From Candidatus Woesearchaeota archaeon (GTDB lineage: Archaea; Nanobdellota; Nanobdellia; Woesearchaeales; UBA11576), in assembly GCA_016929255.1 (NCBI GenBank), contig JAFGJH010000041.1, positions 4,313-68,312 on the forward strand: 64,000 nucleotides of DNA, in the 5' to 3' direction. Position numbers and translations under genes: made by a program. Each line of letters opens with the position of its first letter. Positions within the stretch are counted from its first letter, which is position 1. The notes beneath the pieces are model-generated. The model worked only from the letters and a program-made list of their open reading frames with translations. It was not told where the DNA came from and did no database searches. Shown one piece after another: positions 23,820 through 39,382 of this stretch.

Positions 23820-24998
23820 ATGGCGCCCAAATCCACACCAGGATCAACACAGGTAGAGCAGAGGGAAAAGGAGATACTCAGCAGCATAGTGGCAGGATAC
23901 GCGACAGACATACAGACACTTGAAGACGAGAACAGGCTCCTTAAAGAGACAGTCAACCACCTCAAGAGGGAGATGGAGAAATTCCAGCAGCCGCCGCTAC
24001 TGGTGGCTGAGATCAAGGACCTCATCGATGGGATGGTCCTGCTGAGGCTCAACAACGGAAACGAGTTCTATGTCGGAGTGTCGGATAAAATCAATGATAT
24101 CGCTCCCGGAGACTCGGTCCTTGTGGAGCAGAAGAACCTCACAGTGCTTAGGAAGATACCCCTATCCAAATCCTTCAATGTCGAGAAGTTTGTCATAGTG
24201 GAGAAGCCGCAGATATCCTGGGAACAGGTCGGAGGGCTTGCCAAGCAGGCAGAAGAGATAAAAGAAGTCATAGAGCTGCCTCTCAAGAAGCCGGAGCTAT
24301 TCAAGAGGGTGGGCATACAGCCGCCGAAAGGAATACTCCTGTACGGGCCTCCCGGAACAGGCAAGACACTCCTTGCAAAAGCAGTTGCCTCCGCCACAGA
24401 CAGCTGCTTCATAGAAGTGGTGGGCTCAGAGCTCGTCCAGAAATTCATAGGAGAGGGCGCAAAGCTCATCAAGGAGATATTCCAGCTGGCAAGGGAGAAG
24501 GCGCCGACAATCATATTCATAGACGAGCTTGACGCTCTAGCAGCAAAGAGGATAGACATAGGCACTTCAGGCGAAAGAGAGGTCCAGAGGACATTCATGC
24601 AGCTCCTCGCAGAGATAGACGGGTTCAAGCCCCTCGGCAACGTGAAGATAGTGGGCTGCACAAACAGGAAAGACATACTAGACCCTGCAGTTCTGAGGCC
24701 CGGAAGGCTGGACAGGCTGATAAACATACCGACGCCAGACACCGACGGCATAAAGGAGATATTCAGTATACACACCAAGAGCATGCAGCTGGAAAAGAAG
24801 ACCAACATCGACAGGATATGCAAGGCAATGAACGGGTTCTCAGGAGCGGAGATAAAGGCAGTCTGCACAGAAGCAGGATACTTCGCGATAAGAAAGAACC
24901 GCTACAAGGTCAACGAGAAAGACTTCATGCAGGCTGTCCTGAAGGTCAAGCAGGAAGAGAAGTCAGAGGGAGAAGACTTCATGCGAATGTTCGGCTGA
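23820..24998 (+). CDS. pan: proteasome-activating nucleotidase (AAA+ ATPase)
   Basis: N-terminal coiled coil (LEDENRLLKETVNHLKREMEKF), Walker A GPPGTGKTLLAKAVA, Walker B IIFIDELDA. ATG 23820 lies inside ORF 23481-24998, whose 5' part is antisense to the M29 gene. Confidence 0.9.
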   Translation: MAPKSTPGSTQVEQREKEILSSIVAGYATDIQTLEDENRLLKETVNHLKREMEKFQQPPLLVAEIKDLIDGMVLLRLNNGNEFYVGVSDKINDIAPGDSVLVEQKNLTVLRKIPLSKSFNVEKFVIVEKPQISWEQVGGLAKQAEEIKEVIELPLKKPELFKRVGIQPPKGILLYGPPGTGKTLLAKAVASATDSCFIEVVGSELVQKFIGEGAKLIKEIFQLAREKAPTIIFIDELDALAAKRIDIGTSGEREVQRTFMQLLAEIDGFKPLGNVKIVGCTNRKDILDPAVLRPGRLDRLINIPTPDTDGIKEIFSIHTKSMQLEKKTNIDRICKAMNGFSGAEIKAVCTEAGYFAIRKNRYKVNEKDFMQAVLKVKQEEKSEGEDFMRMFG

Positions 24999-25013
24999 TT
25001 CTGCCGATAATCA

Positions 25014-25190
25014 TCATTCTTTTTTCTGCAGTTCCTTGTTCTTCTTGACAAACTCCTTCATGTGGTTCTCGATGCTCTTCGAGCGTATTATGCCAAGATC
25101 ATCGCATAGCTGGGAGAACTCAGAGTAGACAGACTCTTCTATAAGGAAATTATACCTGCCCTTCTTTCTCTTCTTCCTGCTGTTGTTCAT
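25014..25190 (-). CDS. 58-aa ribbon-helix-helix (CopG/Arc-like) DNA-binding protein, absent from the supplied ORF track
   Basis: My own translation: MNNSRKKRKKGRYNFLIEESVYSEFSQLCDDLGIIRSKSIENHMKEFVKKNKELQKKE. It reads as a basic arm, a beta-strand (YNFLIEESVY) and two helices. Its ATG (25188-25190) overlaps the TGA (25187-25189) of the upstream 625-aa gene in an ATGA arrangement. Confidence 0.7.
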   Translation of the reverse strand: MNNSRKKRKKGRYNFLIEESVYSEFSQLCDDLGIIRSKSIENHMKEFVKKNKELQKKE

Positions 25191-27049
25191 CTCTTAATTC
25201 CCTTGATTTTCTTAACTTTCCTGACTCTTTTGGCTCTCTCGACTTTCCTTACTTTTTTGACATTCCCTGTTTTCTTGACTCTCTTAACTTTCTTCATGCT
25301 CTTGACAGGCACTTCGTGCTCTGCGGGCTTTTCTGGCAACGTCTCCACTGTCCGCAGTTCCTCCGGGTGATATCTGCGATATCTGGATGCAAGCATGGCT
25401 ATTGACGCGAGCACGGCAAGCAAGACCAGGACAACCACCAAGACCTTCAGCCAGCCAGGCTGAGCAGGCCTTTCCGCAACCGGACCGAGCGCCTTCTCCA
25501 TTTCCTCTGCACTGGCATCGGTCTTCCTGCGCAGCTGCTCTTCCATGTCCGCAGCAGTCTCATCACCAACAATGACAGTCACCTTCCTGAAATGCGTGAT
25601 GTCCGGTTTCCGCGTAGGGACCGGCTCTGTGACATTCTCGGGCTCTATCGGAGACCTGACCCTGACAGCGAAGACAGAGAAGCCCGGCGACTCTGCCTCA
25701 TAGAAGAAACTCTCCCTATCCTCACCGGCCAGCTTCGTGTCCAGGTCAGACCAGACACCATCATGGTATCTTGTCACCACAATATCACCTGGAGACGCAT
25801 TCTTGAGATCCATCCATTCCTTGCTGACAGCAACCTCAATGACTGCACGGTCCACAGACAAATCATACAGGTTTGATGTGCTCACCTCAAAATACCAGTA
25901 TACATCGGGCAGATCCTTTCTTATGCTGACAGGCCTCTCTGAAAGAGGCGTAATGCGCACTTCCGCCCCATCAACAAAAGAGTTCAGCATGAGCCTAATT
26001 CCCTTGACGATGCTTTCTGCCATTGTCGGGCGCAGAACATATTCCTTGTGCGGCTCGAAGCTGCTTATAATGAAAGTCACCACGTTGTCGATAGTCCTGG
26101 CGAAGTAAGGCAGACCGCCCCCGCCCCCACCACCCGGAGGGCTGGGAGGGACGACCTTCACCAATCCAGGAAGCATCACGATGATCCTGGCCACTGACCC
26201 CTGACTCGGATTGTAGTCACTGTCAACACCAGCAATCTCGGTGACAGTGATCTTCTCCACAGTATTGTTGTAAGTGTAATCAGGAGGGATGACAAAATCA
26301 AGATAAATCTCTTTCATCTTCGTGCTGCTGCCGAGCTCAATGACATTCCTGAGCCAGCCATTGGTCGACCATCCCGTCGTGCTGGACTGGACATCATCAA
26401 AGAATCCTATCTCAGGAATAGATATGTCATCGACAAGCCATCCGTGCTCGGCATAATAATCATCACTGACATACCAGAACCTAAGCAGGATGACATCACC
26501 TGCGTAATGAGTGAGGTCCATGGTCTCAGGTGTCCAGTCAGAGACAGAGCCAGTGTAAGCAGGCGCGCCGGGCACACCGATGTATGCTCCAGGATCCCTG
26601 TAAGCGGTGGTGGTCGTGCCTGCCAGCTGAGACCAGGTGCTGCCATTGTCCGTCGAGACCTCCACGTACCCGAAATCCCAGCCGTACTCCACACTGTACT
26701 TGGTGTTGAATTTAAGCGTCGCAGAGGAGACACCGGTCAGGTTGAACTCCCGCTGAAGATAGACATCGCTCTTGTCCAACCTTGTCGAGTACCAGTAATT
26801 GTCAAGCCTGAACGCTGCGTAAGGCGCGAGCGTACCGTCGACAGCGAGCGCAACAGAAAGGTCCTCATTCGCCCCGTTGACCAGGAAATACTTGATGCTG
26901 GAAAGCTGACCAGGAGTGTACCTAACCTCCTTCTCAAAAGTGCCCAGGCCAATGGCCGCGACGCAGCTCGCGCCGGCAAAAAGGAGCAACAGCGCTAATG
27001 CGATGCCTCCGAACAGCCTATGGTCCATCTGCTTAATAGTATGTCTCAT
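25187..27049 (-). CDS. surface protein: signal peptide, InhA-like MAM/jelly-roll domain, PGF-pre-PGF-like domain, C-terminal TM anchor and Lys/Arg-rich tail
   Basis: ORF 25187-27064 (TTG); ATGs at 27049 and 27028. ATLKFNTKYSVEYGWDFGYVEVSTDNGSTWSQL...VILLRFWYVSDDYYAEHGWLVDDISI resembles the accessory domain of M6/InhA peptidases. aa ~320-468 resemble archaeal PGF-pre-PGF domains. TM segment WLKVLVVVLVLLAVLASIAMLA. The tail is KKVKRVKKTGNVKKVRKVERAKRVRKVKKIKGIKR. Confidence 0.8.
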   Translation of the reverse strand: MRHTIKQMDHRLFGGIALALLLLFAGASCVAAIGLGTFEKEVRYTPGQLSSIKYFLVNGANEDLSVALAVDGTLAPYAAFRLDNYWYSTRLDKSDVYLQREFNLTGVSSATLKFNTKYSVEYGWDFGYVEVSTDNGSTWSQLAGTTTTAYRDPGAYIGVPGAPAYTGSVSDWTPETMDLTHYAGDVILLRFWYVSDDYYAEHGWLVDDISIPEIGFFDDVQSSTTGWSTNGWLRNVIELGSSTKMKEIYLDFVIPPDYTYNNTVEKITVTEIAGVDSDYNPSQGSVARIIVMLPGLVKVVPPSPPGGGGGGGLPYFARTIDNVVTFIISSFEPHKEYVLRPTMAESIVKGIRLMLNSFVDGAEVRITPLSERPVSIRKDLPDVYWYFEVSTSNLYDLSVDRAVIEVAVSKEWMDLKNASPGDIVVTRYHDGVWSDLDTKLAGEDRESFFYEAESPGFSVFAVRVRSPIEPENVTEPVPTRKPDITHFRKVTVIVGDETAADMEEQLRRKTDASAEEMEKALGPVAERPAQPGWLKVLVVVLVLLAVLASIAMLASRYRRYHPEELRTVETLPEKPAEHEVPVKSMKKVKRVKKTGNVKKVRKVERAKRVRKVKKIKGIKR

Positions 27050-30000
27050 TCTGCTCACACTCAATATATGTTGTAGAGTATTTTATGCCTGGAGTCTCAT
27101 CAGTCGGAGACTCCAGCAGGACATGCAGGTTCGCTGCGTCAGAATCGTTCTGCCACTTGAAGCCATAGAAAGCCTCGAGCGCAGACGGGCTTGTTTTTGT
27201 CATGTAAATCCACGAGGAATCAAGCGCCCAGTCATAAGCCCCCGACTCGTTCACGCCCATCATGTACTGGTAGTACTTGTGCGGCATGGACAGGATGGAT
27301 GAGCTCTCCCAGAGATTTGTCGAGTAGACCCTCCCCTTTGCCTTCAGGTTGCCGTCATTCTCGAACGAGTAGGGCGGCGGATGGTTGTCAAGGGTGTCGT
27401 TTATGTGAGAGCCCCAGCCCTTCTGGTCGCAGATGGTCTGGTTGGGGTTGACGCACATGTTGCCGAAGTCCATCTCATCGCTTGGCTGGGTGCACGACGT
27501 TGTCGGCAGTATGCTAAAATTATAGACAACGCTCCACTCGCTGAGATTATAAGTGTCATCGGCCCTGACACGCCAATAATAAGTCGTGCTGAACTGCAGC
27601 CATGACAAGTCCCAGTAGTAAGTGAACGTGCTGCCTTCAGGGATGTCCATCTCCGCAACCTCAGGAGAGCCGAAATCAGAGTTGTCATCAACCTGAATCT
27701 CGTAAGTCACGCTGTCAGACAAGGTATGCTCAGGATTAAGCCAGCCATACACAGGGTTCCTCGAATCAGTGATTATGTCCTCCGCAGGTGGCTGCAAGAG
27801 TGTCGGCGGCTGTATCCTGTAATCTGTCCTGCTCGTTATCGGGCCCCAGTCAATGACATTTGCGCTGACATCACCTCCATTGACCGCGTTGTACGGGTAC
27901 TGCAGGCCGGCATCGCCGAAGCCGTTGTCCTGGGTGTCGTATATCTTGAGCAACTCAACACCGCCCCAGTAGTTACCGTGGGCGACGCTGCCCGATGTCG
28001 TGTTGAACTGGTTTCCCGCGGTGTCAGCGAAGGCATGGTAATCCGAGCTGTTCCTGAAACTGTTGTAATAAATCACATTGCCTGAAGATCCGCCTGTCAG
28101 ATAGGCACCATAAGTGCTGTTGAAGACCGAGTTGTTCCTTACTGTGGAGCCAGCAGTGCCGTCCAGATAAATGCCGTAAGTGTAATTAGAGGCATTGCAT
28201 GACTTCAATGTTATGTTTGTGAGGCTCCCTGCAGAGAAAGCCCTGCCTGTATCATTTCCAACCAGCAGGGTCCTGTCGCAGGTAAGCGTTATGTCGTTCG
28301 CCTTGAAGTTCACCAGGCCGTTGCCTGCAGCATCATCGACATAGTAAATGCCGCTGCAGAGCCAGGTGTCAGAGGTTAAGTTAAGGTCATCCCTCGGCGG
28401 GAATATGCTCGCGTTTGTGTCATCGCAGTCGTGATACAGATTATAGGTACAGCTGGTGATGTCGCTACCCTCAGCGCCATAGCCGTCGCCGTCCTCATCA
28501 GCGCAGTTCTTTATCGTGATCGGGCCCCAATCTGTCACGTTCACGCTGACCTTTCCGCTGAAAGTGGAGTTGTAGGGATACTCAGAGCCGAAATCACCAT
28601 AGCCGTCAAGATTCGTGTCATATATCTTCAGGCCAGAAACGTCATCCCAGAAGTTGCCCTGCGCAGCATCTCCGACAGTGGTGTTGAAATGGTTCTCGCT
28701 CCTGTCAGAGCAGGCATGATATACTCCGCTGCCCGTGAAGTTGTTATGGTGCAGGACATTGCCTGTCGAGTTGAGCAAGTAAACACCATATGTGCTGTTG
28801 AACAGCGAGTTGTTCAGGAATGTCGAGTCTGAAGTGCTGTTGAGGAAGATTCCTCTTGTGTAATTCTTGACCACGCAGCCTTCGACAGTAATGTTGTCCT
28901 TGCCGTTTGAGTAGAAGCCAAATCCCGAGATGTTCCCTATTATGGTAGTGTCATTGCACGTGGCAGTCACGCTGCCAGCGCCGAACTTTATCAGGCCGTC
29001 ACCAGCAGAGTCATTGAGGTAATATGTCCCGCTGCAGAATGTCACGTCCTGCGTGACCGTATAATCATCGTAAGGCGTCACGCAAGCGCTCTCAACCTCT
29101 GTATCGCAGCAGATCTTGGTCGCGTATGATCCCGCGCCAGTGCAGTTCCCGACCATGAGGTTGGTGTTGAGCCCTGTATCTGCCGACGATATCGAGGCAA
29201 CACATGTATCATAGGCCGAGCAGTCGGTGTTGTATGCGCATGTGATGTTGTAATTTTCAGTGCCGCTGAGGCAGATATCGTGAGGGTATGCGGCTTCGGA
29301 CACCTTCTCGACATGAGAGTTGGTCTCCGACTCCAGACGGAGTATGGGCTCTGCATCGGGGGCCGCGCAGTCCGTGCCGACTTTCTCTCCGTAGACCTCC
29401 CTGCAGCAAGCGATGTAGGGGTAGTTTGACTGCGTGTTCAACTCGGCATGAGCATTGAAAATGCTCGAGAGGCGGAACACTTCAGTGTATGAGCAATCAG
29501 GGGTGATTTCACAGTAGAGCTGGCTCACATAGTTCTCAGCCATAGCGTGCTGGTCGCCGAAAATGAAGAGAAGGTGGTGATGCCCTCCAGAGAGCTCAGT
29601 ATTGGTGAGGAACCCTGTCCCGTCACAGCTGTAGTCCTCGATGAACAGCGAGCTTATCACAATCGAGTCGTTCCCCGCGAGGTCAGAGTAGGTGTATGAA
29701 GCGCCATCATCCCCGATAAGCTTCATGCGGTAATGCGTGTACTCGCTGCCGCACCTGATCTCGATGAACAGCAGGTCATCCTCGGTGCTGTTGTCGTCTC
29801 TGAGGAATTCAGAGAACGTGGTGTTCATGACAGGGGTTATAGTCAGGTTAGCGGTCCCTTTGGTGGTGAAAAGCACAGTCCAATTGGCGCCCAAAGAAGG
29901 ATAGCTGTGCGTGTTTAAGATGCTTATAGCCTCACCGCCGCCAGTGCCTGTTATGCCTTCCACCCTGTACATCCTCACTCCTGCGATATCCACCTCTTCC

Positions 30001-32714
30001 ATCGTCACTGTCAGGGTCTCGGTCACCGTGGAATTACCTTCATCAGCCCTCGTCACATTGACCCTATTGACGCCAGGATATACATAGAACATCCCCCTGC
30101 AGCTTTCATTGACATCCATGATGGACTTTGCGTAAGGGCAGATGTAGGCGAGGCCTTCACCTGTCGACGGGATGTAAAGGGTCTTGGACGCGCTGACGAG
30201 CTCGCTCTGCTCCCTGACATCAACAGCTGATTTCCTCTCTGATGAAGATGACTCGACATTGATGCCGCTCAGGTCAATGTCAGACTCCGCATTGCCGAAA
30301 TATACCTCAAAAGAAGAGACATGGTTGCCTGACGCATCTTTCAGAAGGACAGCTTCAGTGCCGAACTGCCGCACCTCTGTCAGGTCGACAGCCTCATCAC
30401 CCTCAATTACTGCGGATGCATTGGCTTGGAGGGTGCGAACCCGCTTAGGGATGATGAGCATCTTGTCATACGCTGTAGCATAATCATACATCACGACACC
30501 ATCAGACCCGACTACAAAAGCTCCGGCAGAGGAATCTAAGCCCGCAATGGTGAGGTTATACCAGGACCACTCCCCTTCCTTAAGGGTGAGCGTGCTCAGG
30601 ATCCTGCCGGTGTTCTCCTCCATAAGGCGGATGGGCGCTGAATGCTCTGACCATGCATAAACGGATACGGTATCATTGTCTGACAGGCCAGAGCCGAATG
30701 CAAGCCTTAGCCTGTCGCCGCTTATCGTCGTTAAGTTCCCATCCTTTCCGGTCAGCATGGCGGTGACATCCTCCCCTGAAGAGAAGTTCTCTCCCAACAG
30801 CACTGCTGAAGCGAGGTCCACCTGAGGGATATCATAACTCAGGTCAAGCTCGTACTCCCGGCTCGAGAGGTGAGGCACAAGCCACTCTACGCGGTCAACC
30901 AAATAATCATTGTTCGAGTCGATGAACGTCAGGTTATCCACAGCCTCAACAGACGAGTCATTGTGCCTCCACTTCAGCTTCACAAGCCACTCCGGGACCC
31001 AGGCGACATCTGTATATGCGGTGACATTTGAGTAACCTATATCGCCGTAAATCACGACACTCTTGAGGTACTGGCTGTGCTCTGTCTCAGACTTCCAGGG
31101 ACCTGGCGTCTGGTATGATATTTCATATACCCTTGGAGCCGTCATGTTCTCTGTCAGGTTCATCTCGATATAGCTGCCTGAAATTTCAGGCAATGAATAG
31201 AGCACATCCTCTGAGATCAGGTCTAATGTCTCATTCACCACCCCTGTCGCGTTCCGGACAAGCTCCTCGATGGTCTCCGCACTGAAGAAGCTCCACTGCT
31301 GAGAGTACATGATTTCGTGGTTTAGCTCGCAGACAACATTCCAGGTGTGGGTACCGGGATCAAGACCAGTCACCTGGAAGAAGTTCAAGCCTTCAAGAAC
31401 GAGAATGTCGGTCTGGTTGACATTGCCGTCCAGGTGAAGGAGGCACTGGTCAAACTCCCTGTCAGTCTCGTAAAGCAGGTTGAAATTCCTTCCTCCTGTC
31501 TCATTGTCAGAGGGACTCAGAAGCCTGACAGGATGAGAATCAAGGGTGGCAGAGCCACTGACGCCGAAAAGCGAAGACAGCCAGCCAAAGAACTGCTGCA
31601 TAAGCCCTTTGTCTGTCTTGGCAGGGAATGCCGAGTACACACTCATAGGTGTGGGGCTCTCTATCCTTTGGACAGTCACCCTGGAACCCTCGAGGGTGAG
31701 GAAAACCGCTCTGCCGAATGCAATCCTGTCTTCACAGACCTTTTCACGGGAGGGAACCGCCGCCGCAGCCATTGCCTGCCCTTCCTGCCCCCCGCTGACA
31801 AGAGGAGTCTTGTAGACCTCGATGTATGAGGCCTGGTACGGGACAAAAGCCCTGATGACAACCTCTCCTGTCCTGTTAATGAATATCCGCCTTGTCCAAT
31901 TGACAGGGTTTCCCACCCTTGCGGAGCCCTGGACAAGCTCGCTCTGCAGCTCAGTGAAATCGGAAAAGTTGACGCTTATGTTGGTCAAGTTGAGCTCCAC
32001 GCTCATGTTGGCTGTAAAGTTGGAGATGTTGGCGACCGCAGTGAAGCTCTGCACATCGCTGGACCAATCGCCGAAAGCGCCGGAACAGTGTATCTTCCAG
32101 AGATACTCGCCGGGCTGGAGGTCCAGTGCCTCGAAATGGTTGAACCCTATCGGCGGGGTGTGCTTCTCAGCGGCAAGCCAGAACTCCTCCTGCAGGTACC
32201 TGTACAGGAAATAGAGGCCGCAAGTGTCTATTGAGGCGTTGCCACCGAGCTCGTATGAAAGGTTCACGCGCTCAGGGACGACCGATGAATCTTCAGGAGA
32301 GAGAATGGTTATGGTCAGCTCCTGAGAGATTTCCTGCAGCACCTCCGTAGTCATGTTGGTAATGTTGGTCTCGTTGGTTATGTCCGTAATCTCTGTCATG
32401 TTGGTGATGTTCGAAGTCAGGTTCAACGTAAGGTTGAGTGTCTCGTTGACAGCAGCATTCGTGAGATTTGTTTCATTGGTAATGGCTGTGTCGGTAATGT
32501 TGGTCAAGTTTTCAGTCTCATTAATCACTGAAAAACCGGTCATGCCCGCATTGCCTAAGAAATGCAGGAGTGAGAAAACGACCATTATGCTGAACAGAAT
32601 GATCAATATGTCTTTGGATGCCGAGTAACCAGGGGAATCGCCGAGCACATCATCCGCAGAGTTTTCCCTATGACCAGCAATCCCTTCTGATACCGCTTCA
32701 CCAGAGTTTTTCAT
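27033..32714 (-). CDS. giant (1893 aa) N-glycosylation-rich surface protein with two parallel beta-helix (PbH1/NosD-like) modules and Ig/FN3-like domains
   Basis: N-terminal TM/signal anchor (ILIILFSIMVVFSLLHFL). There are 13 N-x-T sequons in 57 aa. Duplicated modules CSGTYYLNDSAGDGLIKF...NNSLFNSTYGVYL...DWGPIT and CSGIYYVDDAAGNGLVNF...NNSVFNSTYGAYL...DWGPIT. The 3' end overlaps or abuts the next gene. Confidence 0.85.
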   Translation of the reverse strand: MKNSGEAVSEGIAGHRENSADDVLGDSPGYSASKDILIILFSIMVVFSLLHFLGNAGMTGFSVINETENLTNITDTAITNETNLTNAAVNETLNLTLNLTSNITNMTEITDITNETNITNMTTEVLQEISQELTITILSPEDSSVVPERVNLSYELGGNASIDTCGLYFLYRYLQEEFWLAAEKHTPPIGFNHFEALDLQPGEYLWKIHCSGAFGDWSSDVQSFTAVANISNFTANMSVELNLTNISVNFSDFTELQSELVQGSARVGNPVNWTRRIFINRTGEVVIRAFVPYQASYIEVYKTPLVSGGQEGQAMAAAAVPSREKVCEDRIAFGRAVFLTLEGSRVTVQRIESPTPMSVYSAFPAKTDKGLMQQFFGWLSSLFGVSGSATLDSHPVRLLSPSDNETGGRNFNLLYETDREFDQCLLHLDGNVNQTDILVLEGLNFFQVTGLDPGTHTWNVVCELNHEIMYSQQWSFFSAETIEELVRNATGVVNETLDLISEDVLYSLPEISGSYIEMNLTENMTAPRVYEISYQTPGPWKSETEHSQYLKSVVIYGDIGYSNVTAYTDVAWVPEWLVKLKWRHNDSSVEAVDNLTFIDSNNDYLVDRVEWLVPHLSSREYELDLSYDIPQVDLASAVLLGENFSSGEDVTAMLTGKDGNLTTISGDRLRLAFGSGLSDNDTVSVYAWSEHSAPIRLMEENTGRILSTLTLKEGEWSWYNLTIAGLDSSAGAFVVGSDGVVMYDYATAYDKMLIIPKRVRTLQANASAVIEGDEAVDLTEVRQFGTEAVLLKDASGNHVSSFEVYFGNAESDIDLSGINVESSSSERKSAVDVREQSELVSASKTLYIPSTGEGLAYICPYAKSIMDVNESCRGMFYVYPGVNRVNVTRADEGNSTVTETLTVTMEEVDIAGVRMYRVEGITGTGGGEAISILNTHSYPSLGANWTVLFTTKGTANLTITPVMNTTFSEFLRDDNSTEDDLLFIEIRCGSEYTHYRMKLIGDDGASYTYSDLAGNDSIVISSLFIEDYSCDGTGFLTNTELSGGHHHLLFIFGDQHAMAENYVSQLYCEITPDCSYTEVFRLSSIFNAHAELNTQSNYPYIACCREVYGEKVGTDCAAPDAEPILRLESETNSHVEKVSEAAYPHDICLSGTENYNITCAYNTDCSAYDTCVASISSADTGLNTNLMVGNCTGAGSYATKICCDTEVESACVTPYDDYTVTQDVTFCSGTYYLNDSAGDGLIKFGAGSVTATCNDTTIIGNISGFGFYSNGKDNITVEGCVVKNYTRGIFLNSTSDSTFLNNSLFNSTYGVYLLNSTGNVLHHNNFTGSGVYHACSDRSENHFNTTVGDAAQGNFWDDVSGLKIYDTNLDGYGDFGSEYPYNSTFSGKVSVNVTDWGPITIKNCADEDGDGYGAEGSDITSCTYNLYHDCDDTNASIFPPRDDLNLTSDTWLCSGIYYVDDAAGNGLVNFKANDITLTCDRTLLVGNDTGRAFSAGSLTNITLKSCNASNYTYGIYLDGTAGSTVRNNSVFNSTYGAYLTGGSSGNVIYYNSFRNSSDYHAFADTAGNQFNTTSGSVAHGNYWGGVELLKIYDTQDNGFGDAGLQYPYNAVNGGDVSANVIDWGPITSRTDYRIQPPTLLQPPAEDIITDSRNPVYGWLNPEHTLSDSVTYEIQVDDNSDFGSPEVAEMDIPEGSTFTYYWDLSWLQFSTTYYWRVRADDTYNLSEWSVVYNFSILPTTSCTQPSDEMDFGNMCVNPNQTICDQKGWGSHINDTLDNHPPPYSFENDGNLKAKGRVYSTNLWESSSILSMPHKYYQYMMGVNESGAYDWALDSSWIYMTKTSPSALEAFYGFKWQNDSDAANLHVLLESPTDETPGIKYSTTYIECEQNETYY

Positions 32715-32717
32715 TTT

Positions 32718-32756
32718 GTGTGTATTAATACATATTTAATATACATTTATACACAC
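32718..32756. promoter_or_regulatory. inverted repeat overlapping the predicted TATA box of the giant surface-protein gene
   Basis: GTGTGTAT (32718-32725) and ATACACAC (32749-32756) are perfect 8-bp inverted arms 23 nt apart. The minus-strand TATAAATG (32744-32751) lies ~33 nt upstream of ATG 32714. Confidence 0.45.
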
Positions 32757-32907
32757 AAGTATTTAAATGCTTTTATGCGCTTAAAACAGCCAGGAAGGCA
32801 GATCAGACCTGCTGCAAAATCCTTTAAAAGCAGGCAGAGCAGGCTCTACCATAACAAATAAATACAAGTAGCAGTTCAATAATAGCATAAAAACAGGGGG
32901 TATAGCA

Positions 32908-33651
32908 ATGAAACTTACTCTAGCAGAACCGAACTACCTAAAAGACAGCGTCTCAATCATCTCAGAGCTCGTAAATGAGGCCTCTTTCAAGATCAAAACC
33001 AATTCCATGGAACTTGTGGCCATGGACCCTGCGAACGTGGCGATGGTCATATTCAAACTCCTGTCCAGCGCATTCACTGAATATAAGGTAGAGAAGGAGA
33101 CAGACCTTGCGATAAACCTCACCAACCTCAAGCAGATACTCAAGAGGGCCAAATCCTCAGATTCACTCACCATGGAGATAGAGGAGGACAAGCTCAAGAT
33201 AACCCTCCAGGGCAACTCAACAAGGACATTCTACCTGCCGATAATAGACATAGAGGAAAAGGAGCAGAGGATACCAGACCTCCACTTCCCTGTCACGATA
33301 AAGACAAAGACAGATGTCCTGAACGACGCGATAGATGACGTGGACGTGGTCGCAGAGTCAGTAAGCTTCATCATAGAGCCAAAGAAGATGACAATACTGG
33401 CCGAAGGGGACCTCAGCAAGGCAAAGATAGAGATACCATCCAAAGGCGATACCATAATAGTCTCAGACACGCCCGACAAGATAAGGGCAAAGTACTCGAT
33501 AGAATACCTCAAGAAGATGATAACAGCATCAAAGCTGGCGAACGAGGTCACGATACAGTTCAACAAGGACTATCCTCTCAAGCTCGAGTACAAGTCAGTT
33601 GACAAGCTCTTCATGAGCTTCATACTCGCGCCGAGAGTGGAGAACGACTGA
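32908..33651 (+). CDS. pcn: DNA polymerase sliding clamp (PCNA)
   Basis: 247-aa ORF with an archaeal PCNA-like N-terminus (LKDSVSIISELVNEASFKIKTNSMELVAMDPANVAMV) and the expected length. Confidence 0.88.
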   Translation: MKLTLAEPNYLKDSVSIISELVNEASFKIKTNSMELVAMDPANVAMVIFKLLSSAFTEYKVEKETDLAINLTNLKQILKRAKSSDSLTMEIEEDKLKITLQGNSTRTFYLPIIDIEEKEQRIPDLHFPVTIKTKTDVLNDAIDDVDVVAESVSFIIEPKKMTILAEGDLSKAKIEIPSKGDTIIVSDTPDKIRAKYSIEYLKKMITASKLANEVTIQFNKDYPLKLEYKSVDKLFMSFILAPRVEND

Positions 33652-36388: not shown

Positions 36389-39382
36389 ATGAGGTCCTTA
36401 AAGGGATTTACAAATCAAAGGGAATTCAAAGGGCCTTCACCCCGCCCAAAGGCACCCCCTGAAGATGTTTCTCATATCTTAAGCGCCGGATACTTTCCAT
36501 TCCTCAAGAGATACAGCACAAAAGAGAGCTTCGGTGAGAAGAACCGCTACCAGAAGATAAAGATAACCTCGGTGGACCGCTTCGAGGAGTGCATAACAGG
36601 CATACGCGAAAGAATCACGGCTTCGCGCACCGGAACAGGAAGCAGCACAAAAGGCCTGCTCTTCTGCGGCCCTGTCGACGGAGTGGACGAGGTCCTAAGC
36701 GCATATGCCAGCATATGCTCAAATGAAGACACTGCATACGCCATATTCTTTGACATAAACCCATATAAGATAGACTACTTCACCTTCAGGCTCTTCCTGA
36801 CACGCATATCAGAGACAAGGGAAGAGTACTTCAGGAACCTATTTTTCTACCTGCAGGGGGACAAGGCAATGCCTGCCATGCAAATACTCGAAAAAGCCGC
36901 AAGAAACACGGTGACAAAGGAGCTGCACGCGGACTACCTCATACACCTGACAAAACAAAGGCTACAGGACAGGGCGCAGCTTCTTAGGCCATACATAAAG
37001 AAGGGCATAGAGCTCCTGAACATCGTCAGAGAAGGGAGAACGCACTACAAAAGCCTCGCAAAGAGGCTTGCCCAGAACATCAATCTCAATCCTTCCACGC
37101 ACTGGCTCTCCGACGAGAGACACTACCAGGCAGTGCGCGAGGCAAGCGTGAGCGAGAGGATAAAGGCAGTACAGGCAGATCTTAACAGGGGAGGCAAGAA
37201 AGAGATACTCAGGATAATAAAAGAGACGGGTCTCAGGCCAGCGCTGCTGTACATACCCAAGGGCAAGAAGAAGTTCTCAGGAAGCGGGGAGCTCGTCGAG
37301 ACATTCGAGACATGCGTAGACACTTTACCCCCGCAGAGCAAGAAAGAGAAGCACAGGGTATGGAACATCATGGAGCCAGAACGCTTCTTCTCGACTCCTC
37401 AGTTCCAGCACCAGGGCGAGCTCTCAGGCAAGCAGCTCATGCTCCTCACAGAGGACTACAAGCAGAGGACCAGCATAACAAGGAAATTTGACGAGAGATG
37501 CAGCATAATGCTCCTCGGAGACGTGCCTTTCGGAAGGCTCTACCTTGATGACAGGTCAAGGAAGTTCATCGACAAGATACAGGAATACGCCAACAGGTAC
37601 GATGTGAAGCACATAGCGCTCTGCGGCGACATCATCGACGGCGAGCACACCCGGGAGAAGAGGAAGCTCGCACTGCTCCAGTACCTGTCAGACGAGCCCC
37701 AGCCCTCAATAGAGCAGCAGTGCAGGCTCGCGGCAGATTTCATATCAGGGTTCAAAGGCAATGTCTACTCAGTCACTTCCGACGGCGACTGGGACATAAT
37801 AGAGGAGAAGCAGAGAGAGCTCATAAACCAGAAGGAATTCCAGTACAAGATAGAGAAGAACACAGGCCACATACCTGACGACGTCAGGAAAAGCCTCAGG
37901 GTCGAGGCGATATTCGAGGCGGCAAAGGAATACTATGACTATGTCGAGCGTCAGATAAAGCTGTCCGAGAAGATAGGAGACTCGCTGCACCTGAACTTTG
38001 ACACGGCCAGCGTCAGGCTTTCGCACATGAGCATAGGCCAGTATTTCAGGAGGAGCCTCTCAAAGTCCGTCGGGGTGAAGGAGCAGCAGATAATAAACCA
38101 GCTTCTGGCCCTGCACGACAGCGAAGAGCAGAAAGACATTGAGGTCAAGGTCAGCTCGCACGACAACGTGCTCCAGGCCAGCATGGAGACTGAAAACACG
38201 CTAAACATCAGGGTGCCGTCGCTCGAGTCACCGACACAGTACGATTCCATACCTGTACAGATAAGGAGCGCGGTCCAGGACACTATGCACAAAGCACTTT
38301 CTGTCAGGGGAAAGATGCCCTTCCTATCATCGTGCAAAGTAGAGGTCACGGACGACGCACGAATACTCATAACAGTCATAAACGAGAAGCTGCTCAACAT
38401 GCTGGAGCAGCACAAGAGCCTGCCTGCAGAGGAATATATCATATTCAGCCTCACAGACACGCACGTAGGGTCAATAGCGAACAGGCATGACTACCTCATA
38501 AAATACATGGACTATGCCAAGAGCCTGGCGCAGAAGCTCCAGGAGAAGCAAGGCATAAGGAAGGTTGGCAGGATAGCCATTCTCAACGGCGACCTCGTCG
38601 AAGGAATAAACTACCCTACAGCGATGATGAGGAACGCTCCCACAAGGCTGGTCATACCGCAGACCCAGGTAAGCTGCGCACTGGAGCTCATGAAGCCGTT
38701 CTTCTTCACAGAAAAAGAAGGCCAGCTCAAGATAGACAAAGACATAGAACACATCTTGCTGACGCACGGAAACCACGAGTACAACTCAGGGTTCATACAC
38801 AGCGGCATGATGGCAACCCAGACAGTACTCCAGTACTTCAAGGCGCACATGGAACGCGAGTATGGCCCTGAAGAGGTCAAAAGAAGGCTGATGTACAGCC
38901 TCTACGTCAGCGTAGACCGCAACAAAACACTTTTCACTTCGATAGGCGCGTTCTCAAAGCTCGGCCTGAACGTCCACATGATGCACTCATACGGCGGAAG
39001 GCCGAACATGGCAAACGCCACGCCGCCCCAGGAAAGGTGGGTAACGAAGATGGGAAGCCTCGCAAAGCCATGGGACATACTCATCCAGGGCCACTACCAC
39101 CAGTTCTCGCTCGGCGAAGTGGCAGGAAAGGTCCTTCTTACATTCCCATCTTTCACAGAGGTCTCGGACTTCGAGTATGAACGGGGGCTGGACTCGCCGA
39201 TGTGCGGGGTCCTGCTCCACCTGTCATCGAAATACGGCCTTGTCATAGAGATACTGACAAGGAGATTCCTGGACAGCTACAAGTGCCAGCACCCGATGTT
39301 CAGAAACATAAGCGTCAAGAGATTCTACGAGCAATGCGTCGAGAAGGCGCTCGAGCCGGCGGACCTGACAGGGTTCAGGTAG
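36389..39382 (+). CDS. 997-aa orphan protein: unknown N-terminal region + degenerate metallophosphoesterase-like module + intact calcineurin/Mre11-type metallophosphoesterase module
   Basis: Intact motifs: DTH (aa 690-692), GDLVEG (733-738), GNHE (794-797), HMMH (863-866), GHYH (901-904). The upstream module keeps GDIIDGEH (413-420) but has DVP and DGDWD where DxH and GNHD/E are expected. Confidence 0.75.
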   Translation: MRSLKGFTNQREFKGPSPRPKAPPEDVSHILSAGYFPFLKRYSTKESFGEKNRYQKIKITSVDRFEECITGIRERITASRTGTGSSTKGLLFCGPVDGVDEVLSAYASICSNEDTAYAIFFDINPYKIDYFTFRLFLTRISETREEYFRNLFFYLQGDKAMPAMQILEKAARNTVTKELHADYLIHLTKQRLQDRAQLLRPYIKKGIELLNIVREGRTHYKSLAKRLAQNINLNPSTHWLSDERHYQAVREASVSERIKAVQADLNRGGKKEILRIIKETGLRPALLYIPKGKKKFSGSGELVETFETCVDTLPPQSKKEKHRVWNIMEPERFFSTPQFQHQGELSGKQLMLLTEDYKQRTSITRKFDERCSIMLLGDVPFGRLYLDDRSRKFIDKIQEYANRYDVKHIALCGDIIDGEHTREKRKLALLQYLSDEPQPSIEQQCRLAADFISGFKGNVYSVTSDGDWDIIEEKQRELINQKEFQYKIEKNTGHIPDDVRKSLRVEAIFEAAKEYYDYVERQIKLSEKIGDSLHLNFDTASVRLSHMSIGQYFRRSLSKSVGVKEQQIINQLLALHDSEEQKDIEVKVSSHDNVLQASMETENTLNIRVPSLESPTQYDSIPVQIRSAVQDTMHKALSVRGKMPFLSSCKVEVTDDARILITVINEKLLNMLEQHKSLPAEEYIIFSLTDTHVGSIANRHDYLIKYMDYAKSLAQKLQEKQGIRKVGRIAILNGDLVEGINYPTAMMRNAPTRLVIPQTQVSCALELMKPFFFTEKEGQLKIDKDIEHILLTHGNHEYNSGFIHSGMMATQTVLQYFKAHMEREYGPEEVKRRLMYSLYVSVDRNKTLFTSIGAFSKLGLNVHMMHSYGGRPNMANATPPQERWVTKMGSLAKPWDILIQGHYHQFSLGEVAGKVLLTFPSFTEVSDFEYERGLDSPMCGVLLHLSSKYGLVIEILTRRFLDSYKCQHPMFRNISVKRFYEQCVEKALEPADLTGFR

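Follow-up and report, generated by a model that had tools for sequence, protein, structure and literature searches.

A candidate ribbon-helix-helix autorepressor and its putative operator at a surface-protein operon of a Woesearchaeota archaeon

The DNA analysed here, a stretch of 64,000 nucleotides referred to below as the window (contig JAFGJH010000041.1, positions 4,313 to 68,312), is a chromosomal piece of a DPANN archaeon (Woesearchaeota). It carries a unit of three co-directional genes, encoding a giant protein, a membrane-anchored middle protein and a ribbon-helix-helix (RHH) protein of 58 amino acids (aa), behind a promoter with a pair of inverted 8-nt arms. Comparison with related loci makes it probable that the small protein would be a CopG-like autorepressor and the palindrome at the promoter of this surface-protein operon its operator. 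Autoregulation by the RHH product through the promoter repeat had been proposed in a preliminary description of this DNA, and the comparative tests reported here supported the surface-protein operon, its terminal RHH regulator and the promoter repeat as an autoregulatory operator.

Most DPANN archaea are uncultivated, and it is widely assumed that they attach to their hosts by means of their large surface proteins. Literature searches found no described regulator for DPANN large surface-protein genes, and the RHH subfamily, its restriction to DPANN, the operator and the coupling to genes for extracellular proteins appear to be undescribed in the searchable literature. The principle of RHH autorepression is itself textbook knowledge; the value of the present case lies in a new family, in its confinement to certain taxa and in how consistently it is linked to the secretome.

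The 58-aa protein and its relatives

Codon comparison and structural modelling indicate that the small open reading frame (ORF) is a real gene encoding an RHH protein. Compared with its orthologue in the related locus L002, it had a nonsynonymous divergence (dN) of 0.096, a synonymous divergence (dS) of 1.28 and an omega of 0.074, indicative of purifying selection, and this constraint equals that of the PAN proteasome ATPase or of the peptidases encoded nearby. The exact protein is listed at NCBI as hypothetical protein JW898_03825 of Candidatus Woesearchaeota archaeon. Its sequence is laid out as a GRYNFLIE strand, a helix (residues 19-32), a G33-x-x-R-S37 turn and a second helix (36-57), and the AlphaFold2 model, with a predicted local distance difference test (pLDDT) score of 88.6, contained an extended segment (11-18) and the same two helices, ending directly after helix 2. 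The strand followed by two helices (beta-alpha-alpha) of the RHH fold was thus found by the model, by Foldseek and by profile comparison. The top Foldseek match in the PDB was CopG (probability 0.96), followed by CopA-SO, ParG, ParD, Arc and AmrZ. A profile built from 43 sequences matched CopG (1b01/2cpg) over its full length (E=2.5e-5), followed by DinJ, which was the third PDB match, NikR, SvtR, ParG and ORF56, with weak values for SvtR (2kel, E=0.008) and ORF56 (2k9i, E=0.11). The 43-sequence profile was needed for any RHH match, as PDB searches with the single protein or with 3 sequences returned only spurious eS17 and homeodomain matches.

Residues typical of the fold were also found. In the strand R-Y-N-F-L-I, hydrophobic residues (Y/F/I) alternate with polar ones (R/N), and in the turn L32-G33-I-I-R36-S37 both G33 (among 15 relatives) and S37 (among 43 relatives) are at least 90% conserved. 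In the profile alignment, R12 and N14 correspond to R4 and T6 of CopG, which contact bases in CopG-DNA structures; R12 and N14 are invariant in the close subfamily, which fits the invariant half-site described below. The strand differs in divergent subfamilies, for example in P0009 (KYKFSIN) and P0010 (RINFVID).

By profile and fold, the 58-aa protein is in the RHH superfamily and in no curated family, Pfam RHH_1 (PF01402) included. Its sole Pfam match was RepB-RCR_reg (16.7 bits compared to a cutoff of 21, E=0.007), the NCBIfam RepA model gave 16.2 bits compared to 87 (E=0.008), and its relatives matched RHH_3, RHH_1, RHH_9, RelB and ParG weakly and in a scattered manner. A word-based homology search with the single protein returned 3 proteins only, an exhaustive profile search of 1.84 billion representatives returned 55 relatives, and a profile search of a 5.8-billion-protein collection returned at least 302 clusters at E<=1e-6. 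The named clusters all came from Woesearchaeota, Nanoarchaeota, Nanoarchaeia or Nanobdellota archaea. The arrangement, which the preliminary description had taken for an unusual case, characterises a whole family of 302 or more protein clusters, in most of which the RHH gene stands first rather than last.

Tandem pairs of RHH genes were observed in two loci (L007, 7836-8159; L010, 8001-8246), and single-chain fusions of two RHH domains, 104-111 aa long, in several others (L013, 883-1197; L029, 3814-4143; P0004; P0109-P0114). Since the RHH domain works as a dimer, such doubled forms are to be expected, and the fused ones would make an intramolecular pseudo-dimer.

The promoter palindrome and its arms across the family

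The inverted repeat ahead of the giant gene (Table 1) consists of two 21-nt halves (32716-32736 and 32738-32758) that are 86% complementary and separated by 1 nt. Its perfect 8-nt outer arms, GTGTGTAT and ATACACAC, are 23 nt apart (N23), that is 31 bp from centre to centre or about three helical turns. It was the only palindrome of this kind in the 64-kb window, and shuffled sequence contained 0-8 across 428 kb. Four half-sites are not claimed for the window because the inner part of the palindrome fits the arm consensus poorly there. The preliminary description had placed the inverted repeat across the TATA box; the repeat is real, and its place is between the TATA box and the start codon, just downstream of the former.

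Table 1. Coordinates of the genes and promoter elements of the three-gene unit (positions are those of the window).
Feature	Position	Strand	Remarks
Giant gene	32714..27033	-	1893 aa; stop TAA at 27035-27033
Middle gene	27049..25187	-	620 aa, counted from ATG 27049
RHH gene	25190..25014	-	58 aa; last in unit
TATA box TTTAAATA	32767-32760	-	after an A-rich stretch (aaaagca) resembling a B recognition element (BRE)
Left, promoter-proximal arm GTGTGTAT	32749..32756	-	3 nt past the TATA box
Right arm ATACACAC	32718..32725	-	ends 3 nt before the giant ATG
Whole palindrome	32716..32758	.	43 bp; outer arms and A/T-rich inner part

The same layout of TATA box and arms precedes the giant gene in all five lineages for which the promoter was available (the window, L002, L007, L053 and L055), with arm spacings of N23, N12, N13, N24 and N13, respectively, and the TATA box also lies 3-4 nt upstream of the left arm in the four other lineages. 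Relative to the window, 11 central bp of the palindrome are deleted in L002, with the arms intact. Archaeal transcription usually starts about 23 nt after the TATA box; for this reason the start is predicted near 32737, at the centre of the palindrome, and the arms would therefore cover roughly -19 to +22. By the position of its arms, the putative RHH operator thus overlaps its own core promoter in these five lineages and in the RHH-first loci considered below.

Two rival explanations were weighed on these data. An RNA hairpin in the 5' leader, masking the start region and controlling translation or stability, would agree with the folding of the 63-nt stretch as RNA (-15.1 kcal/mol, z = -3.4) and with a right arm that ends 3 nt before the ATG. 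It is nevertheless very improbable, as the left arm is so near the TATA box (3 nt in the window) that it should not be transcribed, and as spacings by whole helical turns, isolated arms and direct-repeat arrays are left unexplained by it. The preliminary description had also suggested phase-like expression, and an on/off surface coat switched by slipped-strand tracts or an invertible promoter could draw on the 11-bp difference in the palindrome centre between the window and L002. This part of the description was not borne out and is scarcely credible: positions 24900-33000 contain no homopolymer of at least 7 nt and no dinucleotide tract of at least 5 units, the only tandem repeats are coding ones, no invertible element and no nearby recombinase gene were found, and the spacings are fixed between lineages with the helical phase kept.

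A third exact arm in the window, at 24768-24775 (ATACACAC on the plus strand), lies within the PAN coding sequence and is kept in L002 and L055. It was dropped as an operator, being an apparent coding coincidence (the reverse complement of AAGATACACACA, in a conserved K-I-H-T stretch).

The distribution of the arms was further examined in loci collected with the bait pattern K[GN]RYNFL[IL][DE], by which only the close subfamily is reached. Duplicate loci were discarded manually (L003, L004, L008 and L023 being equivalent to L002, L034 and L035 to L033, and L042 to L040). Outside the clade of the window, the RHH gene is usually the first of its unit and the arms lie between the TATA box and the RHH start, as in L012 (TTTATATAgtGTGTGTATtaATACACAC) and L016 (TTTATAAAtatttcaGTGTGTATttATACACACgattttaaATG) and likewise in L014, L046, L038, L040, L029, L028, L045 and L047. 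An exact arm was present within 120 nt upstream of the first gene in 27 of the 33 non-redundant RHH units. Overall, 47 arms were counted in 3,960 nt of promoter zones compared to 22 in the remaining 349 kb, an enrichment of about 190-fold, and permuted 8-mers averaged 0.44 matches. The spacing within the 19 paired operators took only three kinds of values, namely 2 nt (five operators), 12-13 nt (four) and 22-24 nt (ten), placing arm centres 10, 20-21 or 30-32 bp apart, i.e. one, two or three helical turns. The right arm ended 1-4 nt before the first start codon in 8 of the 19, and was close to it in L032, L048 and L031 too, while a TATA box was found for 14 of the paired operators, with a distance to the left arm of 2-7 nt in 13 of these and of 11 nt in L029.

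The genes that follow vary between units and encode beta-helix giants, FN3/Ig proteins, secreted alpha/beta hydrolases and unannotated proteins. As the RHH gene is the only constant among motif-bearing units, its product is the natural candidate reader of the arms. A different protein, such as a global regulator of surface proteins, might instead bind the palindrome while the RHH protein acts elsewhere or on other targets, and single arms located 7 nt before neighbouring secreted-protein genes (L028, L037) indicate that the motif marks more than RHH genes. That assignment is unlikely, because the partner genes vary across the syntenic clade and the RHH-first loci, leaving the RHH gene as the sole one common to motif-bearing units, and because the phasing of the arms and the multi-arm arrays are typical of RHH operators.

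The lone arms just mentioned (ATACACACg; L028, 2493-2500, before a 734-aa protein gene; L037, 662-669, before a 942-aa protein gene) precede genes that are not the RHH gene's own partners, which hints at a wider regulon. In other loci, direct TGTGTAT/GTGTGTAT repeat arrays were observed 130-310 nt upstream of RHH genes in addition to the core operator (L033, 1639-1782; L048, 294-346; L027, 539; L031, 8691).

The putative transcription unit and its surface proteins

The three co-directional overlapping genes, their coordinates and their extent (7.7 kb, 12%) given in the preliminary description all held in an ORF check, with a span of 7701 nt or 12.0% of the window. Its account of the middle protein stood as to the ORF and both candidate starts, and its length of 625 aa is replaced by 620 aa. 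The mechanical ORF opens at a TTG (27064), with in-frame ATG codons at 27049 and 27028; the former is preferred over the latter because MRHTIK at 27049 aligns with the MRHIKL start of the L002 orthologue. If ATG 27049 is used, the giant and middle genes overlap by 17 nt; the RHH ATG overlaps the middle TGA by 4 nt, as ATGA (25190-25187).

These overlaps, together with a TATA consensus (TTTAWATA) that occurs only once from 24300 to 32960 on the sense strand, the absence of any T6 run on the sense strand in the operon scan and the tight junctions in all related loci examined (-17 to +6 nt), suggest that the giant, middle and RHH genes form one transcription unit. At the first junction, L002 (8255-8290) carries two similar copies of a short sequence (ATGAGACATACTAG gcga ATGAGGCATATTAAG), with the giant stop in the first and the middle start in the second, and the window has one copy (ATGAGACATACTATTAAG, 27033-27049) used by both; the 17-nt overlap would stem from an apparent deletion between copies like those in L002.

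The synteny survey suggested in the preliminary description found the giant-middle-RHH order and the small ORF kept in every related locus examined. In the loci retrieved with the RHH bait (L006, L007, L008, L010, L013, L017), the giant, middle and RHH genes are followed by convergent PAN and then by M29/M24/M16 peptidase genes, and the middle proteins are 35-49% identical. As a sample seeded with the RHH protein is biased, four diverse homologues of the middle protein (P0068, P0073, P0075 and P0076; 35-46% identical) were also used as entry points, and all four loci possessed an RHH ORF of 52-80 aa that overlaps the middle stop and faces PAN. Several metagenome-assembled genomes with a third-party annotation as "uncultured Methanosarcinales archaeon" (among L009-L014 and L018) also carry the RHH family; two of them (L010 and L013) have the middle-RHH-PAN neighbourhood of the Woesearchaeota type, in which PAN and the peptidases can be seen for L013, and the Methanosarcinales label of these genomes is probably wrong.

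The label of surface proteins is well founded for both the giant and the middle protein. The giant protein has one hydrophobic segment (aa 36-54), consistent with an N-terminal membrane anchor, and contains two NosD-type parallel beta-helix modules and an Ig/FN3-like domain, 36 cysteines and 77 N-x-S/T sequons, equal to 4.1% of its residues compared to a median of 0.25% in the long ORFs of the window. The middle protein matched PGF-pre-PGF (TIGR04213) with 64.6 bits (cutoff 28) and InhA-like MAM with 73.5 bits (cutoff 26.9), and its hydrophobic segments correspond to a signal peptide (aa 15-33) and a C-terminal transmembrane helix (aa 536-554). It thus combines the domain of PGF-pre-PGF surface proteins, above cutoff, with a secretion signal and an anchor in the membrane; a PGF-CTERM sorting motif was not seen in it. 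That the two proteins would serve as adhesins is something we infer from these features. The cytoplasmic tail of the middle protein has 23 Lys/Arg among its last 60 residues and is encoded by a degenerate 18-nt tandem repeat (25190-25294; 5.8 copies, 62% matches). This tail is short in the L002 orthologue, so it represents a recent expansion in the window.

The link to extracellular proteins extends to the RHH-first loci. The start of the next gene overlaps the RHH stop by 4-14 nt in 19 of 23 such loci, and 21 of the 23 partners, which range from 245 to over 2989 aa, have an N-terminal hydrophobic segment (signal peptide or membrane anchor), compared to 14 of the 76 remaining ORFs of these loci. 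A second type of unit was also observed, in which the RHH gene is followed by a gene for a 400-740-aa protein with a signal peptide and a second hydrophobic stretch, and then by a gene whose very large product (668 to over 2342 aa) lacks a signal peptide (L009, 7998-12877; L030, 1087-5427; L032, 301-5488; L033, 1921-11083); the N-termini of the middle proteins of these units are alike.

The clusters of the RHH family are annotated almost entirely as hypothetical, with a few RelB/DinJ antitoxins, and nearly all are without a precomputed Pfam domain. The small protein could on such grounds be regarded as an RHH antitoxin or a remnant of plasmid partition that lies beside surface-protein genes by chance, given the antitoxin labels that JGI attaches to a few relatives, the weak matches to RepB/RepA copy-control, RelB, CcdA and ParG models and the rank of DinJ in the PDB comparison. 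Gene context makes this highly implausible. No toxin or ParA gene is adjacent, the neighbours being the 620-aa membrane protein and convergent PAN; the partners elsewhere are proteins with a signal peptide or anchor, at the frequency given above; the protein lacks a C-terminal toxin-binding extension; and the chromosomal neighbourhood of the locus, with PCNA on one side and PAN on the other, is conserved. The identities of type II antitoxin (RelB/DinJ/ParD/CcdA) and of partition protein were rejected for these reasons of context.

Proposed autorepression, known repressors and the surrounding DNA

From the sequence we infer a circuit in which the 58-aa protein would form dimers, at least two of which would occupy the GTGTGTAT/ATACACAC arms along a single face of the DNA. 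Bound arms would keep RNA polymerase from recruitment or initiation, so that the operon, read as a single transcript, would throttle itself once enough of its last product had been made, in a negative autoregulation of the CopG/Arc/ParG type. Owing to the stop/start overlap with the preceding cistron, the output of RHH protein might also track the completed expression of the two surface proteins. Archaeal regulators bound at such a position (MDR1, LrpA, Phr) repress by blocking the recruitment of RNA polymerase, and small RHH proteins without a ligand domain (CopG, Arc, Mnt, omega, ParG) are autorepressors. Because the arms lie over the predicted start and such proteins and regulators repress, negative autoregulation is the most likely mode.

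The RHH protein might also bind the arms and activate the promoter, or merely bookmark it, since the direction of regulation is unreadable from sequence and the additional arrays 130-310 nt upstream in L033, L048, L027 and L031 occupy a position more typical of activators. Activation or bookmarking is quite unlikely, however, as the core arms, which always lie downstream of the TATA box and ahead of the start codon, cover the predicted transcription start, where the regulators named above repress, as do the small RHH proteins compared.

Several observations weigh against autorepression by the RHH protein of a single surface-protein transcript. The protein reaches the curated threshold of no RHH model in Pfam or NCBIfam, and it has no ligand domain through which repression might be relieved. 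An exact arm is absent from 6 of the 33 promoter zones, where either arm variants occur (for example ATACACAT or ATGTGTAT) or the RHH gene follows another gene; moreover, the loci are phylogenetically related, so the counts overstate the number of independent events. Concerning the transcript, two T5 runs occur within the operon (at 32535 and 26982), and a T-rich terminator was not found after the RHH gene, as the operon strand has no T5 or longer run for 700 nt, to 24300. With a gap of 15 nt between the RHH stop and the convergent PAN stop (24999-25013) and no downstream run of T5 or more, operon transcripts may run antisense into PAN.

The CopG-like reading yields a concrete predicted regulator/operator pair, in which the 58-aa protein would read an 8-bp arm whose spacing follows defined rules, and this pair is testable in vitro without culturing the organism. 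The arm rules could also predict co-regulated surface-protein genes in any Woesearchaeota genome.

More tentatively, RHH proteins and a common half-site may be the parts of a genome-wide circuit by which Woesearchaeales-type DPANN archaea meter their whole extracellular proteome, a possibility more doubtful than likely. Stop/start coupling would then make each secreted or surface-protein operon yield one RHH protein for every round of translation, all paralogues would read the same GTGTGTAT arm, and the pooled repressor would feed back on every surface operon. The suggestion comes from L011 and L014, two paralogues with the same arms located 6 kb apart on one contig, and from the extra arms before neighbouring secreted-protein genes in L028 and L037. 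If true, the surface with which these episymbionts contact their hosts would have a dosage or switch system dedicated to it.

Among known systems, the best profile and structure match of the 58-aa protein is CopG (RepA) of plasmid pMV158, with which it shares the size class and the lack of a ligand domain. CopG is a 45-aa RHH repressor of the copG-repB operon, co-transcribed with its cargo, and its operator is a pseudo-palindrome overlapping its own promoter and occupied by several dimers on one DNA face. Unlike CopG, the present protein falls below the Pfam RHH_1 threshold and is associated with an archaeal TATA/BRE promoter and with extracellular proteins rather than a replication initiator; in the clade of the window, its gene is the last of the unit, 7.5 kb from the operator, and the half-site GTGTGTAT is unrelated to that of CopG.

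The position of the gene recalls ParG (TP228, parFG), an RHH protein whose gene comes last in its operon and which acts as repressor of the promoter ahead of the first gene; ParG is a weak profile and fold match here. The direct and inverted arrays of arms resemble those of the omega repressor (pSM19035), which binds arrays of 7-bp repeats in both orientations. In contrast to ParG and omega, the present protein has neither a partner ATPase of the ParA type nor a plasmid context, and its function is not partition. Arc and Mnt (P22) and MetJ are RHH repressors that act as dimers of dimers on half-sites one helical turn apart; they are fold matches, and the N2 operators of the present family have arm centres 10 bp apart. 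Their setting is a phage or bacterial one, MetJ needs a co-repressor, and no sequence relationship was detectable beyond the fold.

In archaea, the small RHH transcription factor CdrS is co-transcribed with ftsZ2, is defined by cdrS-ftsZ2 synteny and was reported from every major archaeal group except DPANN (PMC7439475). The likeness lies in a small archaeal RHH protein encoded with a structural gene; identity with CdrS was rejected, as there is no ftsZ beside the window locus or the related loci. SvtR (SIRV1) and ORF56 (pRN1) are archaeal RHH repressors of similar size and weak profile matches, encoded by mobile elements, whereas the present family is chromosomal and linked to genes for secreted proteins.

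The unit is flanked by divergent PCNA (32908-33651) and convergent PAN, and its neighbours are housekeeping genes, encoding PCNA, a NUDIX protein, a tRNA methyltransferase, the PAN proteasome ATPase, M29/M24/M16 peptidases and a Trp/Tyr-tRNA synthetase. Scans of the window with Rfam (at gathering thresholds) and for tRNA genes gave no matches, and a scan for sigma-70 promoters and bacterial terminators was disregarded as uninformative for an archaeon. The intergenic region between PCNA and the giant gene (32759-32907) is 91% identical to that of L002, and the synonymous divergence of the flanking genes is 0.44-1.0. In addition to the two promoters, it contains a G+C-rich hairpin followed by TTTT on the minus strand (32850-32833). 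A conserved stretch near 32860, which reads TTGTATTTATT on the operon strand, probably represents the TATA box of PCNA on the opposite strand. Further away, a 997-aa ORF at 36389-39382 has no Pfam match, and L053 possesses a 988-aa gene, likewise without a Pfam match, on the same side, beyond PCNA.

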